A stretch of DNA of 64,000 nt, taken from a virus. This document shows positions 888-64,000 of this stretch, in pieces. Location: IMG/VR virus record IMGVR_UViG_3300025000_000067, positions 1 through 64,000 of that record; one strand, written 5' to 3'. The notes beneath the pieces were generated by a model. It was not told where the DNA came from. It saw only the letters and a program-made list of their open reading frames with translations, and did no database searches. A program made the translations under genes and the position numbers. The stretch's first letter is position 1. Each line of letters begins with the position of its first letter.

Positions 888-926
888 GTCCCTACTCATC
901 CGTGTGCTAGTTAATCTACTTCCGAA

Positions 927-952
927 GCCCTCCTGAATGGAGGGCCTTTTTT
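927..952 (+). terminator. rho-independent terminator
   Basis: GCCCTCC-TGAAT-GGAGGGC followed by a T run. Confidence 0.8.
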
Positions 953-1033
953 ATAATTAGGTATAGGCTAAAACTGTATACTATGGTAATATTAGCTATG
1001 CCTAAATACTTCCGAAGTTAATAGCAAGGGGCG

Positions 1034-1510
1034 GTGCTTATGGGTGGACCTACAAATTTAACGTTAAATTCTATGCCATGGTGGGTAGGTATTGTCGCTG
1101 CAATTGTATCTGGACTGTGTGGTTATTTCACCACTCGAATGACTTCCAAGAGCAGGGTGCAATCAGAAAAGGACAAGGTTCAAGCAAAAGCTCAGTCAGA
1201 ACTAGTAACTCAGACTGTAGAACGTCAAAGACAGCTTGATGAGCGACAAGATAAAATGATGGATGACTTTTGCACGGATATTGACCGGCTGCGTGACGAA
1301 CTTCTACTCGTAAGAAAAGAGCTAAATGCCGAGAGGAGCCACAGCAGGGCCTTAAGTGTGGAAATGGAGTCAATTAAAACTGAGAACCGCAAGCTAAGTG
1401 AGGAAAATATTAGGTTGCAAGAGCAAGTCACTGAGTTAAAGGCTGAGCTTCAGAAGGTACAGAGTAATGAACGGGCAAGGTCTATGCGTGAGGAAGGAGT
1501 CAATGCCTAG
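1034..1510 (+). CDS. lysis-cassette membrane protein (N-terminal TM helix plus coiled coil)
   Basis: WWVGIVAAIVSGLCGYF TM helix, heptad-rich tail, overlaps the endolysin start. Confidence 0.6.
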   Translation: MLMGGPTNLTLNSMPWWVGIVAAIVSGLCGYFTTRMTSKSRVQSEKDKVQAKAQSELVTQTVERQRQLDERQDKMMDDFCTDIDRLRDELLLVRKELNAERSHSRALSVEMESIKTENRKLSEENIRLQEQVTELKAELQKVQSNERARSMREEGVNA

Positions 1511-2226
1511 TGAAGGAGAGAACCAGACCCTATGCCTACATAAACCTACACCATACTGCAGGGCATGAAGAAAATACGCAAAAGGTTCGTGAGATCCATA
1601 CTGGACCACCAAATAACTGGGGAGATATTGGCTACAACGCTGTAATTGAACCTAATGGGGCCATTGGCATAGGGCGGGATACTAAATGGTGTGGAGCCCA
1701 TAATCCGGGGATGTCACCTGACAAGGTTCATTCGATGAATGAAGTAGCTTTTGCGGTTTCACACATAGGTGATTTTACGAAAGATGCTATGGGGGAAGCC
1801 CAGTTTCGATCATCCATAAAATATGTAGCTCAAAAAATGAAAGAGTTTGGCCTAGTACCCTCAAAGAGGACCATTAGAAAACACAAGGATGACTACGCTA
1901 CGGATTGCCCAGGGGATAACTTTCCCTATGAACGATACGTTTCTGAGGTTATAAGGCTAATGAAAGGAGGAAGTACGGTGCCAGCTATTGCTATCTTAAA
2001 ATTCTCTCCTGAAGATGACTGGTCAGCTAAGGACATCGATGCTAGACTCGGTGGTGTGGCCACATACGTTAGGCAGGGCACAGACCGAAAGATTCCTTCA
2101 GAAGCTATGTCTGCCACTAAACTCATCGTCATTGGTGGACCAACAACAGGACATCCTAATGAAGTCCTGCTATCTGGAAAGACTAAGTATGATACAGCTG
2201 CAGCGGTAACTAAGTACTTAGGATAA
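1510..2226 (+). CDS. endolysin, N-acetylmuramoyl-L-alanine amidase (Amidase_2) with C-terminal cell-wall-binding repeat
   Basis: HHTAG, WGDIGYN, GAH, HKD..TDCPG Zn-amidase motifs; C-terminal IVIGG..LSGKTKYDTAAAV resembles CW_binding_2. Confidence 0.9.
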   Translation: MKERTRPYAYINLHHTAGHEENTQKVREIHTGPPNNWGDIGYNAVIEPNGAIGIGRDTKWCGAHNPGMSPDKVHSMNEVAFAVSHIGDFTKDAMGEAQFRSSIKYVAQKMKEFGLVPSKRTIRKHKDDYATDCPGDNFPYERYVSEVIRLMKGGSTVPAIAILKFSPEDDWSAKDIDARLGGVATYVRQGTDRKIPSEAMSATKLIVIGGPTTGHPNEVLLSGKTKYDTAAAVTKYLG

Positions 2227-2254
2227 TATACTAAGAAAGGAGAATGGTTATCTT

Positions 2255-2722: not shown

Positions 2723-2798
2723 TGCTCAAGTGGTAGGGCAATATCACAGGGCTCAGAAGACTTCAAGCTTCTGAAGTAGAAAACAGGGGGAATAAACC

Positions 2799-3337: not shown

Positions 3338-3338
3338 A

Positions 3339-5104: not shown

Positions 5105-5287
5105 CTCCAATAGCCCGAATTTTTAATATTATAAATTACTAATGTATACTTCTTTTTGCCTATTCCCATTAAAAATACCTTGCATACTAAGGCTTATAGC
5201 GGTGTATACTAGCTATGAGTGGCTTCGGAAGCCATGCAGGAGGAGGCTATGTCCCCCAAAATAAACTACTAAAGGAGCTGTAAATTT

Positions 5288-6927: not shown

Positions 6928-7238
6928 GTGAAGCACAGCCACAGTGGGTAAAGTTATTCTTAGTACCACAAACTGATCATTTGAACAGCATGCCACCCTC
7001 CGTTATTGGGCTTCTCATAAAAGAAACACCAGGTAGCTATGTGCTTAACCCTATGCTTGAACCTACTGAAGACGAAGAAACCTATGATACAGTGTATATC
7101 TCAGCCGGCATGAACTTCGTCAACAAAACTTATGTATGGAGAAACCAGATACTAGAGTATAAGCCAGAAGTTGGGGTTATTGGCTCAAAGCTTCAGAAGA
7201 CAGAGTCCTACGATGAGAATAGTGGTGGGCTAGGTTAA
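6924..7238 (+). CDS. hypothetical protein
   Basis: ATGA overlap; terminator follows. Confidence 0.65.
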   Translation: MSEAQPQWVKLFLVPQTDHLNSMPPSVIGLLIKETPGSYVLNPMLEPTEDEETYDTVYISAGMNFVNKTYVWRNQILEYKPEVGVIGSKLQKTESYDENSGGLG

Positions 7239-7262: not shown

Positions 7263-7315
7263 GGTAAATAAAGTTGTTCAAAGTTGTGTATACTTGTACC
7301 CTAAAATAGGTTACA

Positions 7316-8048: not shown

Positions 8049-10031
8049 ATGATTTTAGACTTAGTCGATGCCAAGCATGCCTTTTTCAACGGGAATACGT
8101 TCAGCTACAAAGCCCTTATTAAAGTAGTACCAGGGGCTGCATGGAATTCAAGTGACAGGCGCTGGGAGGTGCCCATAGAGAGTGTAATGGATGCTAAGCG
8201 TATTCTCCCATCCCTGCAGCTTTCTGAGGATATACAGCGCCTTGTAAAGGCTCTTGACGTTAGAAATAAGAAAGCTATTGAGCTTAAGTCAGCTGATGAG
8301 TCAAAAGCAGTTGCCACGGTTAAAGGTCTTAAAGGAACTCTACGGCCCTATCAGGCAGTTGGCAAAGCCTTCTTGGATGTTCTTCAGCAGGGGGAGGGTG
8401 CTATTCTCGGTTATGACATGGGTCTTGGGAAGTCACTGACAGGATTAGCAACGTTCTTAGACTGGAAGAATAGAGGGATTGTTGATTATTGTTTAGTAAT
8501 CTGCCCAGCGCCTCTGAAGTACTCGACATGGGAGAAAGAAGTTCAGAAGTGGACTGACCTTGAGGTAGTAATTGTCGATGGGGATAAGCCAGAAGTGGTG
8601 GAATGGGACGATGGCACAAAGGAGAAGTTAAAAGGACGGAGTTTACGAGAGGTCCAGTATCTTCAGTACCAGTACGGGGCAGCTATCATTGTTATGAACT
8701 ATGAGCTTTTTCTCCATGATAGTGAAGTTGACCGGTGGGATAAAGTTCGTGATCTAAACCAAGATGAGATAGACATGTACTTTAGATTAGCATCTGAAAA
8801 TAATGATGCAAATGGGCGAAAAGCTGACAGTGCTAAAGGGTTAGCTGTCGCAAGTAAAGCACTTGTTAAAATGCTGGTGTCTTCTGCAGAAGCAAAGGAA
8901 CATAAGATTTATGGTAAGAAGACCCCATGCCTAGCAAAGAGGCGCGTGCTTCATAACATCATACCGAGAATTAATGATCGCTGGTGTGTGATCCTTGATG
9001 AAGCTCACAGGTGTAAAAATAACAAGAGCTCAGCTGTTAAAAGAATCTTCAAAGCCCTTCCCAATGCAGGTAGAAAGATCCCAATGAGTGGAACACCCCT
9101 AGAGAACAATATCCAAGAGCTCTGGTCACTTGTAGACTTGTGTAGGCCAGGACTTTTAGGTACTCACTTTAAATTTATTGATCGTTACTGTGAGAAGGAC
9201 TTCTTCGGAACCATTGTAGGCCCTAAAGTGGGTATGATGCAGGAATTAAAGGACCGCATAGCCCCTATAATGCTTCGGAAGACAAAGGAAGAGGCTCTAC
9301 CAGACCTGCCAGAACTTACAGTCCAAGACTACTGGGTGACTATGACTCCTGAACAAACTAAGCTCTATGCTATGATCAAAGAGGGCATACTTCAGAACCT
9401 AGAAACTCAAGAGTTTTCGTACTTAGAGACTTTAGCCCAACTCACTAGGCTTCAGCAACTCCTTGATAGCCCAAGGCTCCTGAAGGAGGTCCTAGGAGAT
9501 GATACCCTGCCTATTGAAAGTGGTAAGCTGAATGAACTAGCTCATTTGATTGAAGACATAGGTCCTAAAAAATTTGTGCTCTTCAGTCAGTACAGGGAGA
9601 TGACTGATATCCTGTATAATTGGCTTATTGACTCAAAGATCCTTCAGAAGGACCAGATAGGGTACATTCATGGTGGTATGCAGGCCAGAAAAACAGCCCA
9701 AATTCAGGATGGCTTTCAAGAAGGGGATATCCAATGTGTACTCATGACGACAGCTGGTAACTATGGTCTTCAGTTGGATGCTGGAAGTTACGTCATATGT
9801 TACGATGAATTATGGAATCCTCAGAAGATGGCCCAGATATACTCGCGAGTTCACCGGAGCGGGGTTAAGAACGCAGTAATAGCCATTAATATGGTAACCC
9901 GGGGAACTTATGAGGAGAACAAGCTAAAGATCCTTGAGGGTAAGCGTGAGCTGTTCAGTGCCATGATCGACAATGATGACACAGCCTTTGCTAGTATTCT
10001 TAGTAAGGATGACTTTATAAATATGATTTAG
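8049..10031 (+). CDS. SNF2-family helicase
   Basis: LRPYQ, DMGLGKS, DEAH, SGTPLENNIQELWSL, SGKL, FSQY, GNYGLQL, WNP..Q..SRVHRSG. Confidence 0.95.
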   Translation: MILDLVDAKHAFFNGNTFSYKALIKVVPGAAWNSSDRRWEVPIESVMDAKRILPSLQLSEDIQRLVKALDVRNKKAIELKSADESKAVATVKGLKGTLRPYQAVGKAFLDVLQQGEGAILGYDMGLGKSLTGLATFLDWKNRGIVDYCLVICPAPLKYSTWEKEVQKWTDLEVVIVDGDKPEVVEWDDGTKEKLKGRSLREVQYLQYQYGAAIIVMNYELFLHDSEVDRWDKVRDLNQDEIDMYFRLASENNDANGRKADSAKGLAVASKALVKMLVSSAEAKEHKIYGKKTPCLAKRRVLHNIIPRINDRWCVILDEAHRCKNNKSSAVKRIFKALPNAGRKIPMSGTPLENNIQELWSLVDLCRPGLLGTHFKFIDRYCEKDFFGTIVGPKVGMMQELKDRIAPIMLRKTKEEALPDLPELTVQDYWVTMTPEQTKLYAMIKEGILQNLETQEFSYLETLAQLTRLQQLLDSPRLLKEVLGDDTLPIESGKLNELAHLIEDIGPKKFVLFSQYREMTDILYNWLIDSKILQKDQIGYIHGGMQARKTAQIQDGFQEGDIQCVLMTTAGNYGLQLDAGSYVICYDELWNPQKMAQIYSRVHRSGVKNAVIAINMVTRGTYEENKLKILEGKRELFSAMIDNDDTAFASILSKDDFINMI

Positions 10032-10955: not shown

Positions 10956-11213
10956 GTGGTAACCGTGGAAGTCGTTCAACCTAAGCGCACAGGCAAAAAA
11001 GCTACGGCGATCATGGTTATCGAAGTCCTTGTAGAGGTCGAGGAGTCCGAGAGTTTCTATGATATGGAGGAGCAGGCCCGGGCAAAGCTTCAGAAGCACG
11101 TTGTCGAGGGCCGGGGCTTTTTCCCATTTCGAAATCATTGTGAGACGATCCATGAAATGCCCCTAGAAACGGTCATTGGCAGTACGACGATTAATCCAAG
11201 GAGGAGATGGTAA
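10956..11213 (+). CDS. hypothetical protein
   Basis: AGGAG RBS. Confidence 0.55.
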   Translation: MVTVEVVQPKRTGKKATAIMVIEVLVEVEESESFYDMEEQARAKLQKHVVEGRGFFPFRNHCETIHEMPLETVIGSTTINPRRRW

Positions 11214-13787: not shown

Positions 13788-16700
13788 ATGGCAAGAGAAG
13801 CTCGTAAGAAACGAGGTAAAGAAGAGGACAATCTTCTGAACTTCAAGTACGTGGATGTATTTTATCTTAACCCTCAGTCTGGGCAGCGGTCTAAATGGGT
13901 TCGCGTAGAGCAGGGACCCGCTGTAGAAGACTTCAGAAATAAACACGGGAATTACAACGTCTTTGCAACAATTCAAAGCTACCCGAACAGGATCAAGCGT
14001 GAAGGTGGCGGGGAGGAAATGTACGCCCCGCTGTTTTTTGATATCGATAGCTCTTGTTTGCTAGCTAGGGATTGTGCAGCAGACAAAGGTAAAAAGAACA
14101 AACCCGGGCTAATAGACATAGGAGCCTTGAGTAGGCATGATACAGATTCTTTGCAAGTAAGTGGCCTTCTACCTAAGGAACTTATAGCCCATATACTAAA
14201 TAATGACATGGGTATACCCCTATCAGATGAAGTTTGCCAAAAGATCAATGCAGAAGTTGATGCTAATCCGGACCTTAAGCGGTTAGTATGGCTTAAGAAC
14301 TTAGAGCAGAGCAGAATCGACGCTGTAAAAATCATTACTTTCTTTACTGAGCGCTTTGGCCTTACAGAAGATGAAGTTCGGGTGTATTTTAGTGGGTCTA
14401 AAGGGTTTCATATCTTAGTAAATCCCATTGTTTTAGGAATTAAACCAGATAAGAATCTCCATAGGTTTTTCAAGCTCATAGCTATGTACCTAATAACTCA
14501 ACTAGGGCTTAAGAGCCTAGACACGGGGTCTATCTATGGGCATGCTCGTATGCTTAGACTTGTTAACTCGACTCACCACAAGTCAGGCCTGTTTAAAGTT
14601 GAGCTCTACCATAGAGAGCTTAAAGGGGACTTGGAGCGCATTATAACGTTTCTGGCAAAGTCTCCTAGGGATGACTTCTACCCGCCTGACATACAGGAAC
14701 TTCAGTTGAATGATGCAGCTAATGAATGGTACTTAAAGAAGGTTCAAGAGTTCACAGAAGCCCTAAGGATGGAAGAACTATCTGCTACAGGTAGTAAAAG
14801 TGAAGTACTATCTAAAATGGAAAGTGTACCAGCCTGTGTGCAGTTTATTATGGAACGTGGCATTCTGAAGTCTGGGGATCGGAATAAGGCTACCATGGCT
14901 TTAGCTGCTTATGCTAAGGAAGTAGGAACCTCACAGAAAGAGACAGAGCGTACCTTGGTTGCTTGGGTTAAGAAGATACCAGCGTCCATGACATCTAGCT
15001 CATCCTCAGAAGCTGAAGCGTCAACTATATCCTGTGTTAAAACAGTCTACCAAGAGGATAAGTACCGATTTGGATGTGCTTACATTCGAAGTCTGCATGG
15101 TGATAAGTCAGGTAAAGACTACGAGGCTGTCCCTTGTGGTGGACGGAACTGTCCGGCGCATGAGGATCATGCCATAGACGCTGAACCCGCAGAGGAGATG
15201 CATCTTAGCCAGACTTCTAAAGCCGAGTTCACTGGGAAAAAAGTGTCCTTTAGTGCACTAGTAAGTGGTAAACTTGACACTCCATATATTGTACCTAAGA
15301 AGGTCCGGTTTTTATGCAGGAATTTTAAGTACTGTGATAAACCCTGTGTTATGCATGAATACGAAGGAACGTATGACCGAGAGTTCCATGAGAACGAGCG
15401 CTTCTTGATCGAGGCCACAAACCAAAATGACAACAACTTGAAGGGTGTACTTAGGGCCCATAGCGGAGCATCCTGCAATAAGCTGTCTTATGAAGTCCTA
15501 GAACATATCAACGTGTCAGAGCTTTTAGTGGTTCCCATGGCCGACCGGGTGAAGTCGGTTAAAACTTCAGAAGGTCAGTATCAAGATGTTGATGAGTCAG
15601 GCAATGAGTATGTAACCAGAAAGATGTATGCCATAGGTAATGACATCCAGGCAAATAGCCATTACCAAATTGAGGGCTATGTGTACAGCCATCCCCGTAA
15701 TGCTATGGCGACGATTCTTAGTCAAAAGCATGAACCTATGGAAGACAGTATTTCTAGTTTTGAGTTAACCGATGAAGTTAAAAAGTCCTTTGGGGTTTTT
15801 CAAGTTCAACAAGGTGAGACTTTGGATGACCGAATATCCTTTATTGTTGATGACTTAGTTGATAACGTAACCTTGGTGCGTGAAAGGTTCGCTCCTCATC
15901 TAGCTATACTAATGGTGTACCACAGCTGTCTGCACTACTACTTCCAAGGTAGTCTAGAGAAACGTGGCTGGATGGAGACTGTATTTGTTGGAGATAGTGG
16001 AATGGCCAAAACACAGATGGTGAATAACATCATGGAATTCTGTGGACTTGGAAACACAGCATCCGGTGAAGGAACAAGCCGTACTGGGTTAGTATACCGC
16101 TTAGAACAGCTTGGGGAGCGCTGGTTTATTACATGGGGTAAGTATCCTTTGTCTGATCGGAAGCTTATTGCTATTGATGAATTCTCAGAACTGGATCCTG
16201 AAGACTTCGGGAAAATTACAGAAGCCCGAACCACTGGGGTCTTAAGAGTAGACCGAACCGTGAACACTGAAACAAATGCCCGGGTTCGTCTGATACTCTT
16301 AACTAACCCAGTAAGAACGATGACCTTATCCAGATATACCCATGGAGTTGAGTCACTTCGCCCCCTTTTTGCTACCCCTGCAGATATCCGTCGTTTGGAC
16401 TTAGCAGTCTTTCTTCAATCCGGTGACGTTTCTAAATCAGTCCTTAATGCAGAGTACCCGGCTCCCGCAACTCAGGCAGTGTCTTCAGAAGCTCTCCGTA
16501 ACTCAATCTTATGGGCATGGAGCAGGAAACCACAGGATATTACCATTGGAAAACCAACAATGAAAAAGATTCTACAAAGGGCTGATGACCTAGCTACAAA
16601 GTACGGGGATGCTCAGGATATTCCCCTTATGGAGCCCGCCGACCTTCGAAAAAAGCTAGCCCGTATGTCCATAGCCTTAGCCTCCTTAGTTCATAGTACT

Positions 16701-17729: not shown

Positions 17730-18104
17730 GTGAAAACCCCAGTTGAACTTCTGTCAGACTATCAGCGGAAAGTGAAGCTTATGATATCCCAGAAAATACC
17801 GCATAAGGATATCCAACCACTAGACCAGCGAGATATTATACTCTTCATGGCCTTACTCCATCCAACTGCTAAGCGGGAGTCTAAGGAGCTAACCAAGGAG
17901 CTGATAACATTCATTTGTGATCAAGGGATTATTACAGCTGAAGATATTTATGCAAAGTATAACTGGAGTGATAAACCAGTTATGCGACGTTTGAAGCTTT
18001 TTAGGGAGTTTGGCCTAATAAAGCGTGAGCAGAAAAAGTACTACATGCCAACCCCTAGGATGCTAGAACTTCGGAAGACTTATTTAGAAAGGGTGTGTAA
18101 ATAG
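17730..18104 (+). CDS. winged-helix DNA-binding protein
   Basis: ITAEDIYAKYNWSDKPVMRRLKLFREFGLIKRE..YMPT. Confidence 0.65.
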   Translation: MKTPVELLSDYQRKVKLMISQKIPHKDIQPLDQRDIILFMALLHPTAKRESKELTKELITFICDQGIITAEDIYAKYNWSDKPVMRRLKLFREFGLIKREQKKYYMPTPRMLELRKTYLERVCK

Positions 18105-18398: not shown

Positions 18399-18656
18399 AT
18401 GCCTAAAAAATGGGAAGATGCCCATGTAATAGTTAAAAAGATTCGCGCTATGAATTTCAGTAAGGACTCTCTGGAACGTATCTTAGGTGTCCTGATGGAA
18501 ATGTTAATGGATGGAGGTAGCGACCTAACAAAGATTGACGCTGCTGGAAAGCTTATTCTAGTACTCAGACAGCCTAATGGTGATCAGGCGTACCTAGATG
18601 AAATGAAGAAGCTGGATACTAAGCTTCGGAAGGGGTGTGTAATTAGTGGACGATGA
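18399..18656 (+). CDS. hypothetical protein
   Basis: ORF in operon. Confidence 0.6.
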   Translation: MPKKWEDAHVIVKKIRAMNFSKDSLERILGVLMEMLMDGGSDLTKIDAAGKLILVLRQPNGDQAYLDEMKKLDTKLRKGCVISGR

Positions 18657-22348: not shown

Positions 22349-22648
22349 ATGGCAGTACTACCGAAGCGTAACTTAGTACCTACATCAGCAGCACGTAAAA
22401 AAGCGATCCCAAAAGTAATGGAATCGCCTGTGCTACCTGTGATAGAATCTAGTAAACCTGTTCTTCCGAAGTATAACCAGAAACTTAAGCCATGGCAAAG
22501 CGCTCCTAATACATCTATGGAGCTAATAGGGTGCTGCTCTAGCCACAAGGAATGTCTGGCTTATGGGGATTGTGTAGAAAAACTGTATCATGTCAACTAT
22601 AAAAAAGTATGCAGCCTCTACAGACGCATACGAAAGGGAAGGGGGTGA
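22349..22648 (+). CDS. hypothetical Cys-containing protein
   Basis: IGCCS.H.EC...G.C..C. Confidence 0.55.
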   Translation: MAVLPKRNLVPTSAARKKAIPKVMESPVLPVIESSKPVLPKYNQKLKPWQSAPNTSMELIGCCSSHKECLAYGDCVEKLYHVNYKKVCSLYRRIRKGRG

Positions 22649-22814: not shown

Positions 22815-23102
22815 GTGCTTAACGAAAAAGAACTACTTACCCCTGAGAACATGGAGGACTTCTTTAACCTTCTGAAGGCCACGGAAACTAATTATGTCTA
22901 CTGGACCGGAGTACTACCTAAGAAGCTAATCATTAGCTTTGATATCCTAAAAAAATTGTCTAAGGTAACAGGGTTCTACCAAAGGCCTGAGCTTAAGGCC
23001 GAGGTCACAGCCTTCTCTCCTATTGTCCGGTATTTTAGGTTAACCCATGGTGTAGTCACGATTCAAGAGGACTATGAAGAGTTATTCTTTCACTTCGAGT
23101 GA
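22815..23102 (+). CDS. hypothetical protein
   Basis: ORF in operon. Confidence 0.55.
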   Translation: MLNEKELLTPENMEDFFNLLKATETNYVYWTGVLPKKLIISFDILKKLSKVTGFYQRPELKAEVTAFSPIVRYFRLTHGVVTIQEDYEELFFHFE

Positions 23103-38944: not shown

Positions 38945-39013
38945 TTACTTCGGAAGTGGGTATATTAAGAGTATAAGGGGCTCCGGCCCCTAAAACAAAA
39001 GGAGTGTTAAACG

Positions 39014-42036: not shown

Positions 42037-42666
42037 GTGTTTAAGATGGAATTAGCTACTTTTGAGCTACCTAAAGGCTATGAACTTCTGAAGTCTAAGG
42101 TCAAAGAGGGCGAAACAGTTGATGGTGGCCCGGTGCGTATTATCCTAGCTGTAAGAGCTTCTGACGGGGAACATGTTACCTGGGAGTACAATGACAGGAG
42201 CAAGTGTTACTGGGGTCACTACTACAGAAGTAAGTGTTACTGGGGTCACTACTACAGAAGTTTAGAGGCTGCTGAGAGAGACTTCGAAACTAGGAACCCT
42301 GACTATACGAAAGCTATCAGAGATGCTAAGGCGATCTACGAAGAAATGAAGGCCCTCTATGCAGCAGGCAATGAGAACCCAGAGGATTACTTGGTAGTAG
42401 CTAAGAAGTATGCTAACTTAGTTACTAAGTACGGAAGTTGCAGGGATGGGCTCCATACTGAATGGACTATTCCCGGCACAACATTCCTATCTTCACGGAA
42501 TACACCTACCTATACTTCCTATAAATCGTTCACCAGACTTCCGGATTTCCTTATATTTGCTGAGGACTGTGCTATGATGGTCTATCGCCTAAACGGTGGC
42601 GAAGGGTTTACTACGCCAGAGCTTGTGAAGTTCTTAGACAGTCGGCCTAAGTTCTTAGGGGAATAA
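42037..42666 (+). CDS. hypothetical protein with duplicated SKCYWGHYYR
   Basis: VTW...YWGHY motif; 30-bp tandem duplication. Confidence 0.7.
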   Translation: MFKMELATFELPKGYELLKSKVKEGETVDGGPVRIILAVRASDGEHVTWEYNDRSKCYWGHYYRSKCYWGHYYRSLEAAERDFETRNPDYTKAIRDAKAIYEEMKALYAAGNENPEDYLVVAKKYANLVTKYGSCRDGLHTEWTIPGTTFLSSRNTPTYTSYKSFTRLPDFLIFAEDCAMMVYRLNGGEGFTTPELVKFLDSRPKFLGE

Positions 42667-43763: not shown

Positions 43764-44324
43764 TTGTCAATCGAACCTATTATTTGCCCAGCAGAGGGTA
43801 ATGGGAAGGTCATGGACTTTCATCAGAAACTAGGTACTATTCTAGGTCTTACAGGCTCAAAAGAGCTGTACCTATGGGCTAGTAGCTCTGCGAGTGAATA
43901 CCTGTTCTGCTATGGTAATGCAGAGTACGCGGTGTCTAAGATTCATTTCTACGATCCAGCAGGGAGAGTCTACACAAATCCTCATGGGTACTTTGGTTAC
44001 TGGGAGGGCGAAACTAGCTACAGGTATCGAGGTATAAGCTTTAAGACAAATCAAAAGCTTCTGAAGCGTGTGAAGCTGACGAAAGACTTCAATTGGAAAA
44101 AGTCCTACGATGAAGATATTCTGTTCTTTGTATCCCGGGGGAGGATGGGATACACCAAACCACAAGCTGAGATATATATCCCCTTCTCATACCTTAGGAA
44201 CCTAGGGTTTACCGTTGAGGTTGCAGAGTTTGATCATAATGATGATGAGATTCTGCAGGTGGCTAAGCTGGTAGCGCCAGAATTTTCTGTGATCATAGGT
44301 CAAGAAGTTAAATTGAAGGAGTAG
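43764..44324 (+). CDS. hypothetical protein
   Basis: AGGAG RBS behind a TTGTTCA-motif promoter. Confidence 0.65.
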   Translation: MSIEPIICPAEGNGKVMDFHQKLGTILGLTGSKELYLWASSSASEYLFCYGNAEYAVSKIHFYDPAGRVYTNPHGYFGYWEGETSYRYRGISFKTNQKLLKRVKLTKDFNWKKSYDEDILFFVSRGRMGYTKPQAEIYIPFSYLRNLGFTVEVAEFDHNDDEILQVAKLVAPEFSVIIGQEVKLKE

Positions 44325-45559: not shown

Positions 45560-46174
45560 ATGAAAAGTATTAAGGGGATTGCTGCAGATGCTCGAGACTT
45601 AGAACTCATTGAATTAGCCTTTGCTAAAACTGAGAGAAATCAAGCTGCAACAATCAGCTCCAAGCTAATCTACGGAGCAGCAAGGCAGTGCGGTAAAGTT
45701 GACTTCACTGCTTCAGCTTTAGAAGGCCTACTAAAAAGTTCACCCATCGAAGTCACGTGTTGCAAATGTGGTGATAAGGGCTTAGCTGAACCTATACCAA
45801 GAGTCGATGACAACGTTAAAGAGTGGATCTATGAGCTCTGTGACGAAGCTTTTAAGGCCCTAGAGCGAGATCCTAATATACCACCTGATGAAGAGTGCCT
45901 ACCCGGTAAACCCTGCGCCCGGTGCGCTGAAATACTAGCTGAGGTCTTCTGTTCTGAGTGCGGGTGTTTGGTAGATCTGGATGAGCTTTCCAATGAAGAA
46001 CGCCCTAATAAGGGGTTGTGCAAAGACTGCTTTGAGGCTATCAGGAGAGCTGGTATTTGCTCAGTATGCGCTTCAGAAGAGTACGATGCAGATGAGTTAC
46101 AGGAGAGCAGGTGTCCCAGTTGTTATGAAGAGTTTAGTGCTTACATCGGTGTACAAAAAGAGGAGGAGGAATAA
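45560..46174 (+). CDS. multi-CxxC zinc-binding protein
   Basis: six CxxC pairs. Confidence 0.6.
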   Translation: MKSIKGIAADARDLELIELAFAKTERNQAATISSKLIYGAARQCGKVDFTASALEGLLKSSPIEVTCCKCGDKGLAEPIPRVDDNVKEWIYELCDEAFKALERDPNIPPDEECLPGKPCARCAEILAEVFCSECGCLVDLDELSNEERPNKGLCKDCFEAIRRAGICSVCASEEYDADELQESRCPSCYEEFSAYIGVQKEEEE

Positions 46175-47171: not shown

Positions 47172-48303
47172 GGATTGGCATTGTCCTGAAGGATGCACGG
47201 GTGTAGCCCTTTATCAAGGTGCGTGTCCCGATGATCTAGGTCCAGATGAACCATGTGTTAATGGAATCCTTGATGATGAGGAGTACAAAGCTTCAGAAGA
47301 TTCAAGAGATGTTCCTACGCTATTCAAAACTGAGGAGGAGATACAGACAATGGTTGACTTTAACAAGCTGAGAGCTAATAGGGACCAGAAGGATAGGAGA
47401 ACTCAACAGAAGACATCGGGAGTGGTTAAACCGCTCCCTCGGACTTTTGTTGTATTAGACCTAGAGACAACGGGTTTTGATCGTGTTAATGACCGAATCA
47501 TTGAAATCGGCGCGGTGAGATTTACAGATGGTGAGCCTGTGGCCATATTTAATACACTCGTTAACCCAGAAGTGCTTGTAAGTGAAGAGATAACTAAACT
47601 TACAGGGCATACCAACGAGGACCTTCTGAAGGGCATGAGTGAAGATCACGCAATTATCACCTTAATATACTTTCTTCGAAGTGAGCCTATCGTTGGCCAC
47701 AATGTTCTTTTTGACTATGAGCTATTCTACCGGGCTGCTGGAAGAATTGAATGTGGTGTGTGTAACCCCTTAATCGATACACTCACCATTGCACGAGACA
47801 GGCACAAGTACCCTCACAAGCTCCCAGATATGTGTAAGAGGTATAATGTTCACCAAGAAGGCTGGCATAGTGCTTATTTCGATGCCCTAGCATGCGGGGA
47901 CCTGTTACTCGCTATGCACGCAGAGGATAAAAACTACCCCGAGGGTAAACAGGTAGCTGACTATACAAATGTGATTGGTTGGAAGAGGCAGTATGGAGAA
48001 CCTAAGTGGGGACCATCATGGGTAACACTCAAAGGGCAGGGTGATATGCATGTTCAAGAAGGTCCTCGGAAGGCTAGGCAGGTTATGGTGCCTAAGCATG
48101 ATAAACCAGATGCTAAGTGGTTCGGCAAAGGGTGTGCATATCAGGCATGCCAATTTGAAGAAAGTGGTGTTCAAGGGGAAGGTGTAGGTTTTCCAGTACT
48201 GACTGCCTGTAGCCATCCTGAAGCATCACAAAGCATACGAGAAGATAATTGCCAAGCCAACATGCTCTGTCCTATGGGTCTAAGTGATGACCTCCCATTT
48301 TGA
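47164..48303 (+). CDS. DEDDh 3'-5' exonuclease (DNA pol III epsilon-like) with Cys-rich flanks
   Basis: VLDLETTG, IIEIGAV, GHNVLFD, IDTL, HSAYFDA. Confidence 0.9.
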   Translation: MIRDWHCPEGCTGVALYQGACPDDLGPDEPCVNGILDDEEYKASEDSRDVPTLFKTEEEIQTMVDFNKLRANRDQKDRRTQQKTSGVVKPLPRTFVVLDLETTGFDRVNDRIIEIGAVRFTDGEPVAIFNTLVNPEVLVSEEITKLTGHTNEDLLKGMSEDHAIITLIYFLRSEPIVGHNVLFDYELFYRAAGRIECGVCNPLIDTLTIARDRHKYPHKLPDMCKRYNVHQEGWHSAYFDALACGDLLLAMHAEDKNYPEGKQVADYTNVIGWKRQYGEPKWGPSWVTLKGQGDMHVQEGPRKARQVMVPKHDKPDAKWFGKGCAYQACQFEESGVQGEGVGFPVLTACSHPEASQSIREDNCQANMLCPMGLSDDLPF

Positions 48304-48935: not shown

Positions 48936-50243
48936 ATGCCTCACTGTAAGTGCACACAAACTGACCAAACATGTAAATGTAACGGATGTGCCGAAGCTTT
49001 TGACTGTGATCTATGCCCTGAGCACGGATGTCAGAAGAACCCAGTAAACGGGGCTAGAACAAGCATGTTCCTATGCTTCTATACGCTTAAGCCAGGATAT
49101 AGAGAGGCATGGAAAAAATTAAATAAGGGAGCTGAGAGCTGATGCTATCTAAAACATGTAGTGAAGTTAAAGCAGGGTTGGAGGGTCCTTGTATCCAGCA
49201 TATAGAAAACACTTGCTTATGCTTAGACTGCTCAGAGAGTGGGGACTGTCTTTTATGCCCTAAACACGGGTGCCCTGTGTACCCACAAGATCATAACTTT
49301 ATAGCTGATGTAGAGTTTCAAGGAAACAATGGTGGGGATTATGTGAAGATAAGCCAGACTGTAGGTCAATCTAAAGAATCATGTCTTAATATTGAAGTCG
49401 GTCATTGCTGCGTTGTTACCCTTAGGGCAGTTGTCCCTGTTGAGTTTCTAACATCACTTATTACTAAGTTCATGTTTACCGATACAGAGGGTATGTCAAG
49501 AGCCACGGATGATAAGCTGTCTGACTTTGCTAGAGAAATCATGGACGAATGGCCTAAGGACTTTGTAGATGAGAGGTTGTCTAAAATAGTTGAAGGAGGT
49601 TTTTGGAATGCCTAAAACGTGTACTGATGTTGTAACCAGTCCTAATGGTAATCCTCTAGATTGTCTAAACTGTAGGTGCGTAGGGTGTGGGGAGTATAAA
49701 GATCCCTATAATGCAAACTGTGACTTATACCCAGAGCACGGGTGCCCTAAGTACCCACTAATACCTGAACCTGAGAAATGGTCCTATAACTTTACTGAAG
49801 ACGGTCTATGGGATAATGAAGTCTTTGAAACAGGTGAAGAAGCTTACGAGGCTGGTAAAGCGGAAGCCCTAGATCGTGGGGGCGATACCTTCTACATTGG
49901 CCAGTTGGTGCCTATCACTATTTCTAGTAATGCTGCTGTTGATGTAGATGGGATATTTGATCTAATATCCCAACAATTAGACGATGAGTATGGGTCAGAC
50001 TTCGAGCACGGTGAGCGGTGGTACGATGCCATTACATCCGATGATAAGCTCACCTTGGAGGAGATGCTTAATGCAGCGTTCCACGAGTGGCTTCAGAAGA
50101 CCAGCAACCAACCTACGAGTTTAACGATTATTGACATTGATGAGTACTGCAAGACTGCAAACACATGGGTAGAGAAGCTTAGTACGCAGAAGGCAAAGAG
50201 GCTAAGTGAAAAATTAGGGGAGGATATGCTAAATGAAAACTGA
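48936..50243 (+). CDS. three genes (48936-49142, 49142-49615, 49608-50243) sharing a Cys/His module
   Basis: CxCxxCxE..CxL(C/Y)P(E/K)HGC in each. Confidence 0.65.
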
Positions 50244-50868: not shown

Positions 50869-50958
50869 ATACTTGTCTATATTTGTTCATCGTTGTATAC
50901 TACTTAACAGGGGGATTTTAGGAAGAACTAAAATTTTTAAAGGGATGGTGGACAAGCT

Positions 50959-52279: not shown

Positions 52280-52788
52280 TCTTCTGAAGCCCTAGTGCCA
52301 CAAGGCATTGGGGCTTTTCCTATACCCGCTCAATGCCCTCTCATATATGCCTTTGACGAATGTTACATAATAAGCATATGTAACATTCAGGTTTAAGTGG
52401 GGGGTGCTCCTATACTCCTAGATGCCTCCTATAAATGGGCTAAAAATCCATGACAGAATACTCTGACAGGGTTTATGCAGTCGAGTGCATAATTATGCAT
52501 AGGTGTTTTCTTGCAATTCTTAGGAGCCTATAGTATAGTATAGGGATTTTTAAAATGGGGTGTTTTCATGTGAAAAGGAAAAATGTTACAAGTAGCTGTA
52601 ACCCTTGGTATCGCTGGGTTTGGGCATTTATTACAAAAGTATCCATGTAAAAAATTAGGATATTTTTAAGATGGGGTGAGAGGCTCAGAGAATTGGACTA
52701 ATGGTCTGACTATTGGTAAGACGAAATTGTAAATAAATGGAGCCAAAAATGGGGGCAAAATGAGGCCTTTTTGCCTTTTTGAAAAAAA

Positions 52789-55431: not shown

Positions 55432-56022
55432 ATGAACAGGTACATACCTATGAATGAATTAACTAAGATAGTTGTTGAAGGCGATATCTTTAAAGTAGAC
55501 AGCAGAATTATTGCTAAAAACTTTGAAAAGGACCACAGGCACGTATTACGAGATATTGATAATCTAATTGCGCAAATAGATGTGTCCAAAATTGGGCACA
55601 TCTCTGAAAGCTATTTTGTGCCAGCTAAGTATGCAGATGTGCATGGTAGGGTACAAAGATTCTATGATATGACTTTTAGAGGTTTTATACTTCTTACTAT
55701 GGGTTTTACAGGGGAAAAGGCATTTGCTTGGAAATTAAAGTACATTGATACTTTTGAGTGGCTGAGACAAGAGTACTTAAAAAAGCTAAAAGTACCTGAG
55801 CATCCCTTTATAAACCTAGCTACTATGACAGGTCTTCAAATGGATGTTTTTGAGCGTTTTGTGCCAGATGGTATGACGCTGAGGGAAGGGGCTTTTTGGT
55901 TTAATACAGACTTCTATAAGGATATAATTAGATCCTATGAAAAGGGAGTAAGGAAGTTTGAGCGTAAACAAGCTAGGCTAAAACAAAAGAAATTAGAATC
56001 ATCTTCAGAAGTTGAGGACTAA
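55432..56022 (+). CDS. Rha family regulatory protein
   Basis: DSRIIAKNFEKDHRHVLRDIDNL..GFILLTMGFTGEKAFAWKLKYIDTF. Confidence 0.92.
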   Translation: MNRYIPMNELTKIVVEGDIFKVDSRIIAKNFEKDHRHVLRDIDNLIAQIDVSKIGHISESYFVPAKYADVHGRVQRFYDMTFRGFILLTMGFTGEKAFAWKLKYIDTFEWLRQEYLKKLKVPEHPFINLATMTGLQMDVFERFVPDGMTLREGAFWFNTDFYKDIIRSYEKGVRKFERKQARLKQKKLESSSEVED

Positions 56023-58615: not shown

Positions 58616-59207
58616 GATGATCGAGGCAAAGCCTATGACAGCAAAAGAGGCTAGCCTAATACTATTTGATCGGCCAATTAGCACTGAGAACGCTGATGAA
58701 GAAGGTAATGGCTATCTAGTGAAGTATGAAGATGGCTACACCTCATGGTCACCTAAAGCTCAGTTTGAAAAGGCATACACAAAATTTGGGACTAGGAGTG
58801 CCATAGGTGAAGGCCTAGAAATCAAACCGATTGACTCAAGTGTTTGTATAATCAAATTTAAAGAGGACTTCTCACACGAAGAGATTGAGTCATTTAAGAA
58901 AGCATGGAGAACTGCGATGTGTAGTCCAGGATCACCTAAAGTAACAGCGCTCTGTGTGCCAAATACCATAGACATAAAATCCTTAGAGGGGACAACCTTT
59001 GATTTCTCAGTGGCCCTGAAGCTTCTGAAGTTAGGGTATAAGGTCACAAGAACCTACTGGATGGATGGGGATAGTGTGGTTTACTGGCTAGAGCTGGTAG
59101 ATAACGATATTCGAAAAGGCCGGATGTACGCTGGTAACCTAAGCTATTGGGATGATGCAGAGTCGGCAGCTCTGTTAGCTGAAGACTATAAGCTCATGAA
59201 GCGCTAA
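58593..59207 (+). CDS. DUF2829/Tad2-like domain protein
   Basis: N-terminal YIG.K.I.A.PMT..GYLVKYEDGYTSWSPK..FEKAY; C-terminal FDFSVAL..LK.G.KV.R..W..LLAEDY. Confidence 0.7.
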   Translation: MDMYIGFKMIEAKPMTAKEASLILFDRPISTENADEEGNGYLVKYEDGYTSWSPKAQFEKAYTKFGTRSAIGEGLEIKPIDSSVCIIKFKEDFSHEEIESFKKAWRTAMCSPGSPKVTALCVPNTIDIKSLEGTTFDFSVALKLLKLGYKVTRTYWMDGDSVVYWLELVDNDIRKGRMYAGNLSYWDDAESAALLAEDYKLMKR

Positions 59208-59514: not shown

Positions 59515-59599
59515 TAATCTTCGGAAGTAAAAGGGCTATTGATTTTCCATAAATAATGGTATTATTAGTTTAATATGCAAATGGGACGGGGGAATTTAT

Positions 59600-60967: not shown

Positions 60968-62776
60968 ATGGTTATGGATAACATACTAGACATTTGTGCA
61001 ACAGCCCCAAAAGCTGAAGAGCTTCTGAAGGCCTTTGCTAGTGGAGAAAAGATAAAGATGGGTAAGCCTAAGTCTGCAATTATTGATCCGTATATGACGA
61101 CAGGGGCTAACGGCCTAAGACAGAAACCTACTGCTGTTCCATACTCTGTGCTTAGACGAATGGCTAAGGTCCCTGCAGTAGCTGCGATCATTAACACAAG
61201 ACTCAATCAAGTTGCACGGTTCTCTCGACGGCCACGATTTGAAGGGGATATGGGATTTAAGATCGTACTGAAGGACAGAGAAGCTAAAATGTCAGAGGCC
61301 CAGAAAAAACGAGCCTTCGAGCTGGAAGAGTTCTTCATGACCACAGGTGCCGTGCCTAATGCTAAGCGCAAAGACAACTTTGATAAGTTCATGCGTAAGA
61401 TTGTACGTGATACCTTGACATTAGATGTTGTGACCTTTGAAAATGTAGGTAATCGCAAAGGAACCATAGCTGAGATATGGGCTATTGATGGCGCAACGAT
61501 TGAACTTGTAGCCAGTGATCTAACAGGTGCAGAGCGGGAAATGCCTGTCTATGAGCCAATGACCCGGGCCGGGCAGTCAATAGCTAAGGACATATCCTAT
61601 GTGCAGAGGGTTAATGGCCAGATTATTGCGGAGTTTACAGAAGACGAATTGTGTTTTGCTATTCGCAATCCTCAGACAGATATCAACATGGTGGACTTCG
61701 GAATGTCAGAACTTGAAACACTAATAGAGATTGTCACAGGAATTATGAATAGCGTCCGGTACAATACAAGCTATTTCAGTGAATCACACCTACCCCAAGG
61801 GATACTAGAAATCGTGGGTAGCTATGAAGACTCACACTTAGAAGGTTTTAAGAAGCACTGGAAAGCGATGACTAGTGGCGCATCAGGGAAGTGGGCAGTG
61901 CCTGTGATGGCCTTAAAAGAAGGAGCAGGGTTTAAGTTCACAAACTTTAAGGCAAATAATCGGGATATGGAGTTCAATGAGTTCTTAGAGTTTTTGTTCA
62001 ATATCGCCTGTGCAGTGTATCAGATCGATCCCAATGAAGTAGGTTTTAAGTCTTGGACCAGTGGTGGCAACGGAGCTATGAAATCGGACAATACAGAAGT
62101 CAAGATTGACCAGTCAAAGGATAAAGGATTCGTCCCGCTCATGCAGTTCTTAGCCAATACCTTCAATTCAGAAGTCGTGGACCGGATTGATGATCAGTTT
62201 GCCTTTACATGGATTGGAATTGATGAACAAGATGAGGAGCAGAAGTGGGCGCGGTATAAGGAGCAGATTGACTCGGGAGTTGTCGTCGTTGCAGAGATCC
62301 GGAAGAAAGAAGACATGGATGAACTGTTGGATGAGGAAGGTAAACCCGCTCAATGGACAACAGCACCTGGTAACCCCACCCTAATTCAGGTGTTTATGGC
62401 TGAAGTCAATGCTAAGATGGCAGAAGAACAGCAAGCACAGCAACAACAGCAGGGTGCTATCGACGGAGCACAGGAGAAGATGACTGCTGATGATACCCAT
62501 AGTAAGGCTTTAGAAGTCATGGATAAGCAACACCAGCAGGGATTAGAAGCTAAGAAGTTGGATCAAGAACATCAAGTTAACCTAGAGAAAATCAAGCATA
62601 AACAAGGTCTTGAAGGTAAACAGCTTGACCAAAAGCATCAGACAAATATTGAACAGATGAAAGCAAAAGCACAGGCTAAGAAGCCACCGCTTAAGAAATC
62701 TCTTATAGATTCTTCCGAAGTATTAGATTCCGAAGAGGACGAGCTGCAGGTATCAATTGAGTGGGGAGATTACTAA
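60968..62776 (+). CDS. portal protein
   Basis: AIINTR..QV, IVRDTL..D, G.SELE, N..YF...P.GIL, DMEF, YQIDPNEVG. Confidence 0.92.
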   Translation: MVMDNILDICATAPKAEELLKAFASGEKIKMGKPKSAIIDPYMTTGANGLRQKPTAVPYSVLRRMAKVPAVAAIINTRLNQVARFSRRPRFEGDMGFKIVLKDREAKMSEAQKKRAFELEEFFMTTGAVPNAKRKDNFDKFMRKIVRDTLTLDVVTFENVGNRKGTIAEIWAIDGATIELVASDLTGAEREMPVYEPMTRAGQSIAKDISYVQRVNGQIIAEFTEDELCFAIRNPQTDINMVDFGMSELETLIEIVTGIMNSVRYNTSYFSESHLPQGILEIVGSYEDSHLEGFKKHWKAMTSGASGKWAVPVMALKEGAGFKFTNFKANNRDMEFNEFLEFLFNIACAVYQIDPNEVGFKSWTSGGNGAMKSDNTEVKIDQSKDKGFVPLMQFLANTFNSEVVDRIDDQFAFTWIGIDEQDEEQKWARYKEQIDSGVVVVAEIRKKEDMDELLDEEGKPAQWTTAPGNPTLIQVFMAEVNAKMAEEQQAQQQQQGAIDGAQEKMTADDTHSKALEVMDKQHQQGLEAKKLDQEHQVNLEKIKHKQGLEGKQLDQKHQTNIEQMKAKAQAKKPPLKKSLIDSSEVLDSEEDELQVSIEWGDY

Positions 62777-62792
62777 AAAGGGGACGGTGTAA

Positions 62793-63152
62793 ATGACTAA
62801 GTCTAGATTAAGGCACTGCAAGGATGGCGTTCAAGAATATGATCTTCTGTGGCTCTGGTGCCCAGGGTGTAACGAGTACCATGCAGTTAAAGTTAACACT
62901 TCAAATGGTTGGAATTGGAATGGAAGTCAAGAAAAACCGACAGTTACACCTTCAATACTAGTGCGAGGTACAAAACCAATAAGTGATGAAGAAGCTAAGA
63001 GAATCCTGAATGGTGAGCATATTGAGTCAATTCCACTGGTATGTCATAGTTTTGTAACAGACGGTAGAATACAGTTTCTTAGTGATTCAACTCATGTGTT
63101 AGCAGGCCAAACAGTGGATTTACCTGAATTGGACGAAAATGATATTGATTAG
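62793..63152 (+). CDS. DUF6527-like protein
   Basis: CPGC...H..WNWNG...PT..PSILV..CHSFVTDGRIQFL.D.TH.LAGQTV.LP. Confidence 0.8.
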   Translation: MTKSRLRHCKDGVQEYDLLWLWCPGCNEYHAVKVNTSNGWNWNGSQEKPTVTPSILVRGTKPISDEEAKRILNGEHIESIPLVCHSFVTDGRIQFLSDSTHVLAGQTVDLPELDENDID

Positions 63153-63175
63153 AGGAGTTGAGGAGGTTGAAGCAA

Positions 63176-64000
63176 TTGAATATCGTACTTCCGAAGACTC
63201 TGCAGGCATTGTCAAATGATCATAAGCTTCAGATAGTCTCTGAACTATCTAAGGCCCTAGATATTAAAAGCCCTAAGGCCTCGGGATTAGAACGCACAGT
63301 GTGGACCACGAACGATGAGCAGTTACTCGGTGAAGCTGAGGATGAACTTTATGAAATACTAGTGGGTCCAGCTCTAGAGAATATGGCTGAGCTCATAGCA
63401 GCCTTGGAGCGAAGTGATGAGCCAATACAACTACAGAAGGCCTTCAGTCCAGAATACTTAACCTATGAAGATCAATTGTTTAAGGCCTTGGACAATGGTA
63501 AGCACAAGTTAAGTGATCTTATCAACCTATCGAAGACTAAGCGCAATGCTTTTACTAAGCTACTGCAGGAGGGTAGTGAGTGGACAAAAGCTAAGCTTAA
63601 GCAAATTGACGATATCATGAAACAAAAGTTACCGGACTATGCAAAGTTAGCTGAGCAGTTTGCAGTAAGAGCAGCGTTTATAGCTAAGATCCGGAGTCAT
63701 GCAGACACTGAGATGTTGAGCACTGTAGGCGCTTTTGTAGACCGCTTTCCCTCAACGATTAAAGAGGCAGAGCATGAAGGGTTAGTTCTAACTCTTAAAG
63801 AGCAGGAGAGGGCTAAGGCAGAAGGTCGAACAGTGAAGATCCTTCCTCTACAACCCCAAGAACTTAGGGCAGTAGAACATGCAAATTTACGAGCGGGCGA
63901 TAAGCTGACAGAGATAAGTGATCGCCACCGAGCAGGTGTCCGGCAATTAGTGATCCGAGCACAGAATGAGCGCTGGGGTGCTCAGAAGTTAGCTCAAGCC
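63176..64000 (+). CDS. probable head morphogenesis / minor head protein (3' truncated)
   Basis: GGAGG RBS, TTG start, frame open to the window end; position after the portal. Confidence 0.6.
   Translation, partial: MNIVLPKTLQALSNDHKLQIVSELSKALDIKSPKASGLERTVWTTNDEQLLGEAEDELYEILVGPALENMAELIAALERSDEPIQLQKAFSPEYLTYEDQLFKALDNGKHKLSDLINLSKTKRNAFTKLLQEGSEWTKAKLKQIDDIMKQKLPDYAKLAEQFAVRAAFIAKIRSHADTEMLSTVGAFVDRFPSTIKEAEHEGLVLTLKEQERAKAEGRTVKILPLQPQELRAVEHANLRAGDKLTEISDRHRAGVRQLVIRAQNERWGAQKLAQA

Follow-up and report, generated by a model that had tools for sequence, protein, structure and literature searches.

Short DNA words that are selected along a whole genome, such as Chi, uptake sequences, HIP1 and the stoperators, have each revealed a dedicated DNA-reading machine. 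Stoperators number about 25-35 per 50 kb and lie mostly between genes, and a repair-bias origin has been proposed for the HIP1 palindrome. In Cluster A mycobacteriophages, stoperators are repressor sites spread over the genome (PMC9283540, PMC6550527); each is 13 bp long, asymmetric and oriented with transcription, and is bound by a monomeric repressor (PMC9283540). In cyanobacteria, HIP1 has been studied together with CGATCG methylation, and HIP1-type palindromes have been linked to methyltransferases (PMC6105098, PMC6604393). Here we describe a palindromic word, CTTCNGAAG (CTTC-N-GAAG), that recurs along the first 64 kb (hereafter the window) of the single-contig virus record IMGVR_UViG_3300025000_000067 (102,131 bp, 42.7% GC). 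The original prediction, made from the window, had interpreted this word as a positively selected, genome-wide mark bound by a dimeric protein. Our analysis supports the selection and points to two phage genes that were lost along with the word in one lineage. A literature search for CTTCNGAAG gave no match, and a search for over-represented phage palindromes returned nothing relevant.

Over-representation of the palindrome

The word occurs 44 times in the window, compared with a mean of 1.06 and a maximum of 4 in 100 dinucleotide-preserving shuffles, and 79 times in the whole 102-kb genome. All 44 coordinates given by the original prediction proved to be exact matches, and no further copies were present in the window. 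When all 4+4 words with gaps of 0-7 bases were ranked, CTTC-N-GAAG came first (z 36.9; 79 copies vs 4.1 from half-word frequencies), and the ranks just below were taken by its own sub-words. The halves in reverse order (GAAGNCTTC) were found only 5 times in the whole genome, and CTTC/GAAG halves separated by 0, 2 or 3 bases 3, 2 and 2 times, respectively. The flanks of the sites contain no conserved base. All four bases occur at the centre, as had been claimed (A17, T12, C8 and G7 among the window copies), and A or T occupies 63% of the centres in this genome.

The earlier claim of many one-mismatch copies stood for one class of variants. Those differing at the outer bases (positions 1 and 9) were enriched 2.6-4.1-fold, whereas inner one-mismatch variants were near expectation. 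Because only the outer variants are enriched, the recognised core would be TTC-N-GAA, with C and G preferred outside it.

In a simple greedy open reading frame (ORF) model with 139 genes covering 92% of the genome, 66 copies were intragenic; 33 of them read as Leu-X-Lys (frame 0), 26 as Ser-Glu (frame 1), and the other 7 are in frame 2. The intergenic copies (13 of 79) were twofold enriched relative to the 7.6% of DNA that is non-coding. As the original prediction had noted, the sites are not confined to one reading frame; they use all three, lie in genes of either strand and extend into intergenic DNA. Shuffling synonymous codons within each gene, which preserves every protein and its codon usage, left 8.6 ± 2.8 copies (maximum 19), and shuffling codon order left 2.6 ± 1.6, compared with the 66 real copies in coding DNA. 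This confirms that codon bias is insufficient to account for the word. Since 66 exceeds both nulls, codon choice and amino-acid sequence are both bent toward it: LQK tripeptides were spelled CTTCAGAAG in 15 of 23 cases, where codon usage predicts about 7%, and 26 of the 34 occurrences of [SPTA]SE[VADEG] were written with the CTTCNGAAG word.

Distribution of the word among related phages

Profile-guided scans of IMG/VR yielded about 20 related contigs from different metagenomes. Every contig with a large terminase at least 67% identical to that of this phage carries the word, at 0.5-3 copies per kb and over a GC range of 43-58%. The full genomes G001, G002, G003 and G008 contain 133, 134, 191 and 161 copies, compared with 5-21 copies of the reversed control word. 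In four relatives, the coding copies likewise exceed those left by synonymous shuffling (120 vs 11.6, 119 vs 9.9, 160 vs 15.2 and 136 vs 13.1). These counts demonstrate that the word belongs to one clade spanning different base compositions. The centre is mostly C or G in G001, G002, G003 and G008, and can be any base in this genome and its nearest kin.

Consistent with an earlier remark that phages usually avoid palindromes, restriction-type palindromes are purged throughout the group. G001 contains zero GATC, CCGG and GGCC; G008 is nearly without GGCC or GATC, G009 is without CCGG or GATC, and this genome retains 326 GATC. Given that the purged sets differ between genomes, the phages seem to infect different hosts. 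A restriction target would be avoided or protected by a methylase, while CTTCNGAAG is present at about 20-40-fold over chance in this phage and its relatives, in which GATC, CCGG, GGCC and many 6-mers are purged.

A nucleotide search against cultured phages gave no match. By protein, the nearest cultured phages infect Bacillus, namely SPO1-type phages (large terminase 32%) and vB_BboS-125 (primase-MCM 39%), and neither of the two candidate proteins described below (SprT-like and w84) is encoded by cultured phages. No relative turned up when genome contigs were scanned with profiles of the large terminase and of primase-MCM.

Conservation and spacing of the sites

A relative from another sample, G004, is about 81% identical in nucleotides over 37 kb and retains 26 of the 32 alignable sites, compared with 8.9 expected from codon-phase-matched 9-mers (P ~5e-10). 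Per-position identity was 0.93-0.97 within the word and 0.80 in its flanks, a sharp conservation footprint that coincides exactly with the 9 bases. Relatives at 50-70% protein identity share an alignment column for 5-8 of about 35 sites (chance 0.06), yet their word density is equal or higher. This implies that site positions turn over slowly while the number of sites is maintained.

The sites are spread evenly along the genome, with 5-10 per 10 kb. Close pairs are depleted: pooled over five genomes, 85 gaps of at most 150 bp were found where 137 were expected, and the short spacings of neighbouring sites showed no helical periodicity. Genes without a homologue in G001-G003 have a lower word density than core genes (0.46 vs 0.84 per kb), which is still ten times chance. 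The 9-bp palindrome is therefore under selection for its presence and spacing. The synonymous shuffles, the conservation in G004 and the depletion of close pairs agree with the original prediction of positive, genome-wide and even selection at the DNA level.

Loss of the word together with two genes

G009 (72 kb) and G010 (80 kb) are two contigs of one phage type that is at least as close to this genome as the word-carrying relatives are (identities to this genome are 68% for primase-MCM and 64% for DNA polymerase). Each contains 2 copies of the word, a chance number. In a maximum-likelihood phylogeny built on seven core proteins (2,660 columns) with the distant G006 as the root, G009/G010 were sister to this genome with 100% bootstrap support. 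As this lineage is nested inside the word-carrying clade, the word must have been lost in it.

About 45 genes are common to this genome, G001, G002, G003 and G008, and exactly two of these are absent from G009, G010 and G006. One encodes an SprT-like protein (window 5288-6352) and the other, w84, lies beyond the window (genome 65317-65571). Both were still absent from G009, G010 and G006 in profile searches run in six frames with filters off, and the syntenic regions of both lie well inside the G009/G010 contigs. At none of the fetched loci was a member of either family seen without enrichment of the word; a distant SprT-only homologue, at locus L089, is not accompanied by it. The word was thus lost together with two phage genes, and the loss narrows the reader candidates from about 140 genes to two small proteins.

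Other words are over-represented in the genomes lacking CTTCNGAAG. G009 and G010 carry a polar, non-palindromic 8-mer, CAGAGGCT, with 25 forward and 6 reverse copies in G009 and, in the opposite orientation, 33 and 8 copies in G010. Its coding copies number 23 vs 4.6 after synonymous shuffling, and it looks like a Chi-type signal. G006 (111 kb, 60% GC; primase-MCM 46% identical) has a different palindrome, GGGCGCCC, at 94 copies vs 8.5 expected (coding copies, 78 vs 14.6 after synonymous shuffling); CCCGGG is fully purged from this genome (0 vs 140).

An SprT/Spartan-like protein

The first candidate is a 354-residue protein that matches the Pfam SprT-like family (E 4e-8). The top match of its AlphaFold2 model (predicted local distance difference test, pLDDT, 81) was human Spartan 6mdx (Z 11.0, root-mean-square deviation 3.4 over 109 residues; Foldseek probability 1.0), followed by selecase and Wss1 (Wss1 Z 7.2). 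As in SprT, Spartan and Wss1, a zincin is combined with an adjoining zinc-binding sub-domain whose cysteines are conserved. The protein is laid out as a zincin, a Cys-rich zinc ribbon, a conserved C-terminal alpha/beta domain without a clear match and a basic tail. About 50 members of the family are present in public data, all metagenomic. Their C-termini are of three kinds, a Fis-type helix-turn-helix (HTH; Pfam HTH_50), an RGRP tail resembling an AT-hook, and a short basic tail, and because every member has one of these, the protein is probably always tethered to DNA. Look-ups in the Atlas returned viral SprT-like clusters only, a metagenome scan with the SprT profile added at least two short close loci, and a literature search on SprT-like phage proteins returned nothing relevant.

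Instead of the catalytic HExxH, the protein of this genome and its sub-lineage (7 of the 50 members) has the zincin motif HQMIH (window 5735-5749, residues 150-154); the remaining members have HEMIH, HEMVH or HESIH. The sub-lineage also lacks the C-terminal HTH. Judged from its sequence, the sub-lineage form is probably a catalytically dead Spartan-like protein, yet it is conserved, being 79-86% identical between sub-lineage members.

The SprT-like gene is the first gene downstream of a conserved, origin-like region with inverted boxes. A copy of the word is located at or beside its promoter-like element in G000, L079, G001, G002 and G003. The copy lies 12 nt 3' of the -10-like hexamer in this genome, L079 and G003 alike, about 20 nt downstream of a -10-like hexamer in G002, and just upstream of one in G001.

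The winged-helix protein w84

The second candidate, w84, has 84 residues and is encoded 1.3 kb past the window end in the head and injected-protein module, directly upstream of two giant polyvalent head-module proteins. It showed no significant family in Pfam. In its AlphaFold2 model (pLDDT 82), helices at residues 7-21, 27-32 and 37-46 are followed by strands at 49-56 and 59-66, that is, by the beta-hairpin wing of a minimal winged-helix domain. All of the top 50 VIA matches were winged-helix domains (Z 6-8), and Foldseek matched PadR, MarR, TFIIIC and the replication terminator protein RTP.

Two subtypes of w84 differ by one residue just before helix 3. The subtype with a one-residue deletion at this point accompanies words with any centre base (G000, L001 and L005), and the other accompanies words with C or G at the centre (127 of 133 copies in G001, despite a GC content of 45%, and 5 of 5 in L004).

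Adjoining w84, on the minus strand, is the gene for a 300-residue HTH-nuclease of the DUF559 (Vsr-like)/REase_MTES_1575 type (genome 64389-65291; L026:389-1291). This gene starts beyond the window end and encodes repeated HTH modules; comparison with seven related genomes revealed no homologue, and the product resembles a free-standing homing endonuclease. The position of w84 is taken in G010 by an HNH endonuclease gene (L063:9991-10851). Homing endonucleases thus seem to use the w84 locus as a landing place, and w84 could have been lost in this way. A scan with P0070 for further w84 loci found none.

Giant protein 1 (L026:1583-9049, 2,488 residues) contains a ParB-like nuclease/partition domain at residues 1429-1560 (PHROG 26588, E 7e-24), beside RadC/JAB and LPD1 domains in a head-module polyprotein. 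Compared by sequence with solved structures, the giant proteins matched in their RadC and SNF2 parts only. The ParB-like domain was considered as a reader and rejected, as homologues of giant protein 1 are kept in G010.

Binders and roles proposed earlier

Several binders named in the original prediction do not follow the word. G009, G010 and G006 retain the proteins encoded at 17730 and 11799, with identities in the normal range, and the one at 37959 has no homologue in other word-carrying genomes. ParR fared no better: ParM/ParR is patchy, being absent from G001 and G003 and present in G009. For HU, which had also been listed and for which no search of this genome was made, a homologue was seen only in G009. 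A role in DNA modification is likewise unsupported. Searches of five word-carrying genomes for methyltransferases of four main families (PF01555, PF00145, PF02086 and PF02384; other families were not searched) gave a single hit, in G001, and none of the four is shared.

A proposed phage-encoded reader and the alternatives

A dimeric protein reader is the most economical explanation of the word. We favour, at roughly even chances, a phage-encoded reader that reads the selected word and is most likely w84 acting with the Spartan-like protein as a partner. CTTCNGAAG would then be a DNA-level recognition word, placed about once per 0.5-1.3 kb along the whole chromosome in one clade of ~100-kb phages. 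As a dimer, w84 would bind both half-sites, and the metalloprotease-fold protein would be its functional partner. The reader, once on its sites, may mark, coat or silence the phage chromosome, and the Spartan-like protein may remove or antagonise the bound protein. The word copy at the SprT-like promoter could close a loop of repressor versus protease.

Several observations weigh against this explanation. The link between genes and word rests on one loss event plus the outgroup, and is a correlation, not a test. The match between centre base and w84 subtype also coincides with the loss of the HTH and follows phylogeny. Winged-helix domains can bind proteins instead of DNA, and the w84 and SprT-like genes are about 60 kb apart in different modules. 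With HQMIH and no HTH in the phage's own sub-lineage, where the sites are still conserved, proteolysis is probably unneeded there. Finally, G008 has no word copy at its SprT-like promoter.

In a more specific and rather improbable form of the idea, the pair would operate a phage 'chromatin' switch: w84, made with the head proteins, would coat the ~100-200 evenly spaced sites, and the Spartan-like protease would strip it off and so start the lytic programme. On the same improbable footing, the silenced state would exist in the virion or in a plasmid-like carrier, and the protease would be expressed from an early promoter guarded by w84. If true, the switch would show a Spartan-type protease being directed by sequence for the first time, and would amount to a genome-wide self-mark written in coding DNA.

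A serious, though on present evidence unlikely, alternative is that a host protein reads the word, either as a palindromic Chi-like signal for an AddAB/RecBCD-type nuclease or through a chromosome-organising or regulatory protein, with the phage exploiting it and the G009/G010 lineage having moved to a host with another word. Host-specific signals predict that related lineages have other selected words, as CAGAGGCT in G009/G010 and GGGCGCCC in G006 illustrate, and the even spacing and turnover of positions fit a Chi-like role. However, the same word is used across GC contents of 43-58% and by phages with different restriction-avoidance profiles, and so probably in different hosts, and a host reader leaves the loss of exactly two otherwise universal genes unexplained. 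Known Chi sites are moreover asymmetric, whereas this word, being palindromic, is not polar.

It is doubtful that the SprT/Spartan-like protein itself reads the word through its zinc ribbon, its Fis-type HTH or its conserved C-terminal domain, with w84 having been lost by coincidence, for example through displacement by a homing endonuclease. This protein is present and absent together with the word, has DNA-binding tails and a word at its own promoter that would fit autoregulation, and the HNH endonuclease gene at the w84 position in G010 suits the coincidental loss. On the other hand, the variation of the tails (HTH, AT-hook or basic) suggests generic tethering, not a conserved reading head, and the HTH-less sub-lineage still conserves its sites. 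To our knowledge, Spartan-type domains do not act as sequence-specific readers.

That the word is a functionless by-product of methylation and biased very-short-patch-type repair, as in the HIP1 proposal, seems very unlikely. The Vsr-like (DUF559) nuclease gene next to w84 would suit this mechanism, but its lack of homologues in the related genomes speaks against it, as does the lack of a shared methyltransferase of the four families searched. Furthermore, inner one-step neighbours are at expectation, without transition-specific depletion, and the depleted close pairs and positionally conserved sites point to selection.

A role in RNA, in which a G at the centre gives a stable C(UUCG)G tetraloop hairpin that structures transcripts, is extremely improbable. 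Several intergenic copies in relatives do sit at the tip of leader or terminator hairpins; against this stand the predominance of A or T centres in this genome, the nearly equal use of G and C at sense-strand centres in G001 (55 vs 72), and the fact that most copies are intragenic, on either strand and without flanking complementarity. An artefact of composition, codon or dipeptide usage can be dismissed: a purine-rich coding strand makes GAAG common (958 vs 440 CTTC), but the excess survives the dinucleotide, half-word, synonymous and codon-order nulls, and is missing from sister genomes with similar proteins; the word is also twofold enriched between genes.

This clade commits the choice of codons and amino acids across almost all of its genes to a single palindrome. 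If a phage-encoded reader of this kind is confirmed, sequence-addressed control of a viral chromosome would be linked to a protease fold of the Spartan type. Metagenomic contigs can also be assigned to this uncultured clade simply by the presence of the word.

Positions of the sites and neighbouring features

All copies in the window are listed in Table 1, together with the SprT-like gene and its putative promoter.

Table 1 Copies of the word and features of the SprT-like locus in the window, with their state in G004
Feature	Position	Strand	Context	G004
CTTCCGAAG	919..927		intergenic, adjoins terminator-like hairpin	
CTTCCGAAG	1009..1017		intergenic	
CTTCAGAAG	1448..1456		coding frame 0 (L-Q-K)	
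CTTCAGAAG	2096..2104		coding frame 1 (S-E)	
CTTCTGAAG	2768..2776		edge of overlapping ORF calls	
promoter-like TTGCAT-N19-TATACT	5180..5210	+	before SprT-like gene; putative, by eye	
CTTCGGAAG	5223..5231		12 nt 3' of -10-like hexamer of SprT-like gene	
SprT/Spartan-like protein, 354 aa	5288..6352	+		
CTTCAGAAG	7191..7199		frame 0 (L-Q-K)	
CTTCGGAAG	9273..9281		frame 0 (L-R-K), SNF2 helicase gene	
CTTCAGAAG	9642..9650		frame 0 (L-Q-K), SNF2 helicase gene	
CTTCAGAAG	11088..11096		frame 0 (L-Q-K)	
CTTCAGAAG	15565..15573		frame 1 (S-E), primase-MCM gene	
CTTCAGAAG	16483..16491		frame 1 (S-E), primase-MCM gene	
CTTCGGAAG	18069..18077		frame 0 (L-R-K)	
CTTCGGAAG	18624..18632		frame 0 (L-R-K)	
CTTCCGAAG	19698..19706		frame 0 (L-P-K), DNA polymerase A gene	
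CTTCCGAAG	22463..22471		frame 0 (L-P-K)	
CTTCTGAAG	22869..22877		frame 0 (L-L-K)	
CTTCAGAAG	24842..24850		frame 1 (S-E), RuvC-like gene	
CTTCAGAAG	25207..25215		frame 0 (L-Q-K), RuvC-like gene	
CTTCTGAAG	26077..26085		frame 1 (S-E), dUTPase gene	
CTTCAGAAG	26821..26829		frame 1 (S-E)	
CTTCGGAAG	28213..28221		frame 2 (F-G)	
CTTCTGAAG	29853..29861		frame 1 (S-E)	
CTTCTGAAG	31790..31798		minus-strand gene (S-E)	
CTTCCGAAG	33999..34007		minus-strand VirD4-like gene (F-G)	
CTTCCGAAG	34800..34808		minus-strand VirD4-like gene (F-G)	
CTTCTGAAG	36910..36918		minus-strand gene (F-R)	
CTTCAGAAG	37217..37225		minus-strand gene (S-E)	
CTTCAGAAG	38167..38175		frame 1 (S-E)	
CTTCGGAAG	38948..38956		intergenic, within promoter-like stretch 5' of gene at 39014	
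CTTCAGAAG	41762..41770		frame 1 (S-E)	
CTTCTGAAG	42085..42093		frame 0 (L-L-K)	
CTTCTGAAG	44058..44066		frame 0 (L-L-K)	
CTTCAGAAG	46071..46079		frame 1 (S-E)	
CTTCAGAAG	47291..47299		frame 1 (S-E)	kept
CTTCTGAAG	47623..47631		frame 0 (L-L-K)	kept
CTTCAGAAG	50091..50099		frame 0 (L-Q-K)	not kept
CTTCTGAAG	52281..52289		intergenic, immediately 3' of stop codon	
CTTCAGAAG	56003..56011		frame 1 (S-E)	not kept
CTTCTGAAG	59022..59030		frame 0 (L-L-K)	kept
CTTCGGAAG	59519..59527		intergenic	kept, centre G -> C
CTTCTGAAG	61022..61030		frame 0 (L-L-K), portal gene	kept
CTTCCGAAG	62712..62720		frame 1 (S-E), portal gene	not kept
CTTCCGAAG	63188..63196		frame 0 (L-P-K)	kept

Other repeated elements were observed in the same genomes. 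Inverted 21-bp boxes of the TACGTACCAACTCATACGTAA type form the pairs 4934-4954/5083-5103 and 52798-52818/52971-52991 in the window; the two pairs flank AT-rich cores and are 48 kb from each other. A box of this type is also found upstream of the SprT-like gene in G001, G002, G003, G008 and L079, and the boxes look like origin or end-processing elements. Tandem TTGT-N6-TTGT repeats, which may be iterons, lie at window positions 7274-7293, 27289-27308, 50873-50892 and 53179-53198; there are 13 in the genome vs 1.3 expected, and they also occur in the relatives L008, L037, L049 and G009. In G001, intergenic leaders (e.g., at 19688, 60492 and 60967) consist of an early-type promoter, a 5' leader hairpin and a conserved ribosome-site block, TAAAAC...AGGAGCTGG. 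Some of these hairpins are tipped by CTTCSGAAG and others have a GAAA loop.

Comparison with known systems

The parS/ParB, NBS/Noc, matS/MatP and ram/RacA systems resemble this one in having palindromic sites repeated along a replicon, where a dedicated protein marks or organises the DNA; here, the reader is a candidate. The parS, NBS, matS and ram sites, at 13-16 bp, are longer than CTTCNGAAG, much less numerous and concentrated in particular regions, and none of their readers has a homologue that follows the word.

The proposed toggle, a zinc metalloprotease paired with a DNA-binding protein, recalls ImmA/ImmR of ICEBs1 and IrrE/DdrO. ImmA/IrrE-type proteases are COG2856 members whose genes adjoin that of their repressor, whereas the protein described here has a Spartan/Wss1-like fold, its gene is 60 kb from that of its putative partner, and cleavage is only hypothetical.

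In its statistics, the word resembles HIP1 (GCGATCGC), also a short palindrome in strong genome-wide excess and intragenic in all frames; the over-representation is of the HIP1 type (79 vs ~4, z 37, all frames and intergenic DNA). HIP1, however, is found on cellular chromosomes and is tied to CGATCG/GATC methyltransferases (PMC6105098), while no methyltransferase of the four families searched is shared here and the word follows two phage genes.

With stoperators, the word shares dozens of copies of one short site along a phage genome. Stoperators are read by a phage-encoded DNA-binding protein that co-evolves with them, a part for which this clade offers a candidate. They differ in that CTTCNGAAG is a perfect palindrome whose centre has no sense-strand bias, reaches 80-190 copies per 100 kb and is 84% intragenic in all frames. 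Set against these systems, what is new is the word, the clade that carries it and the comparative pinning of two candidate genes.

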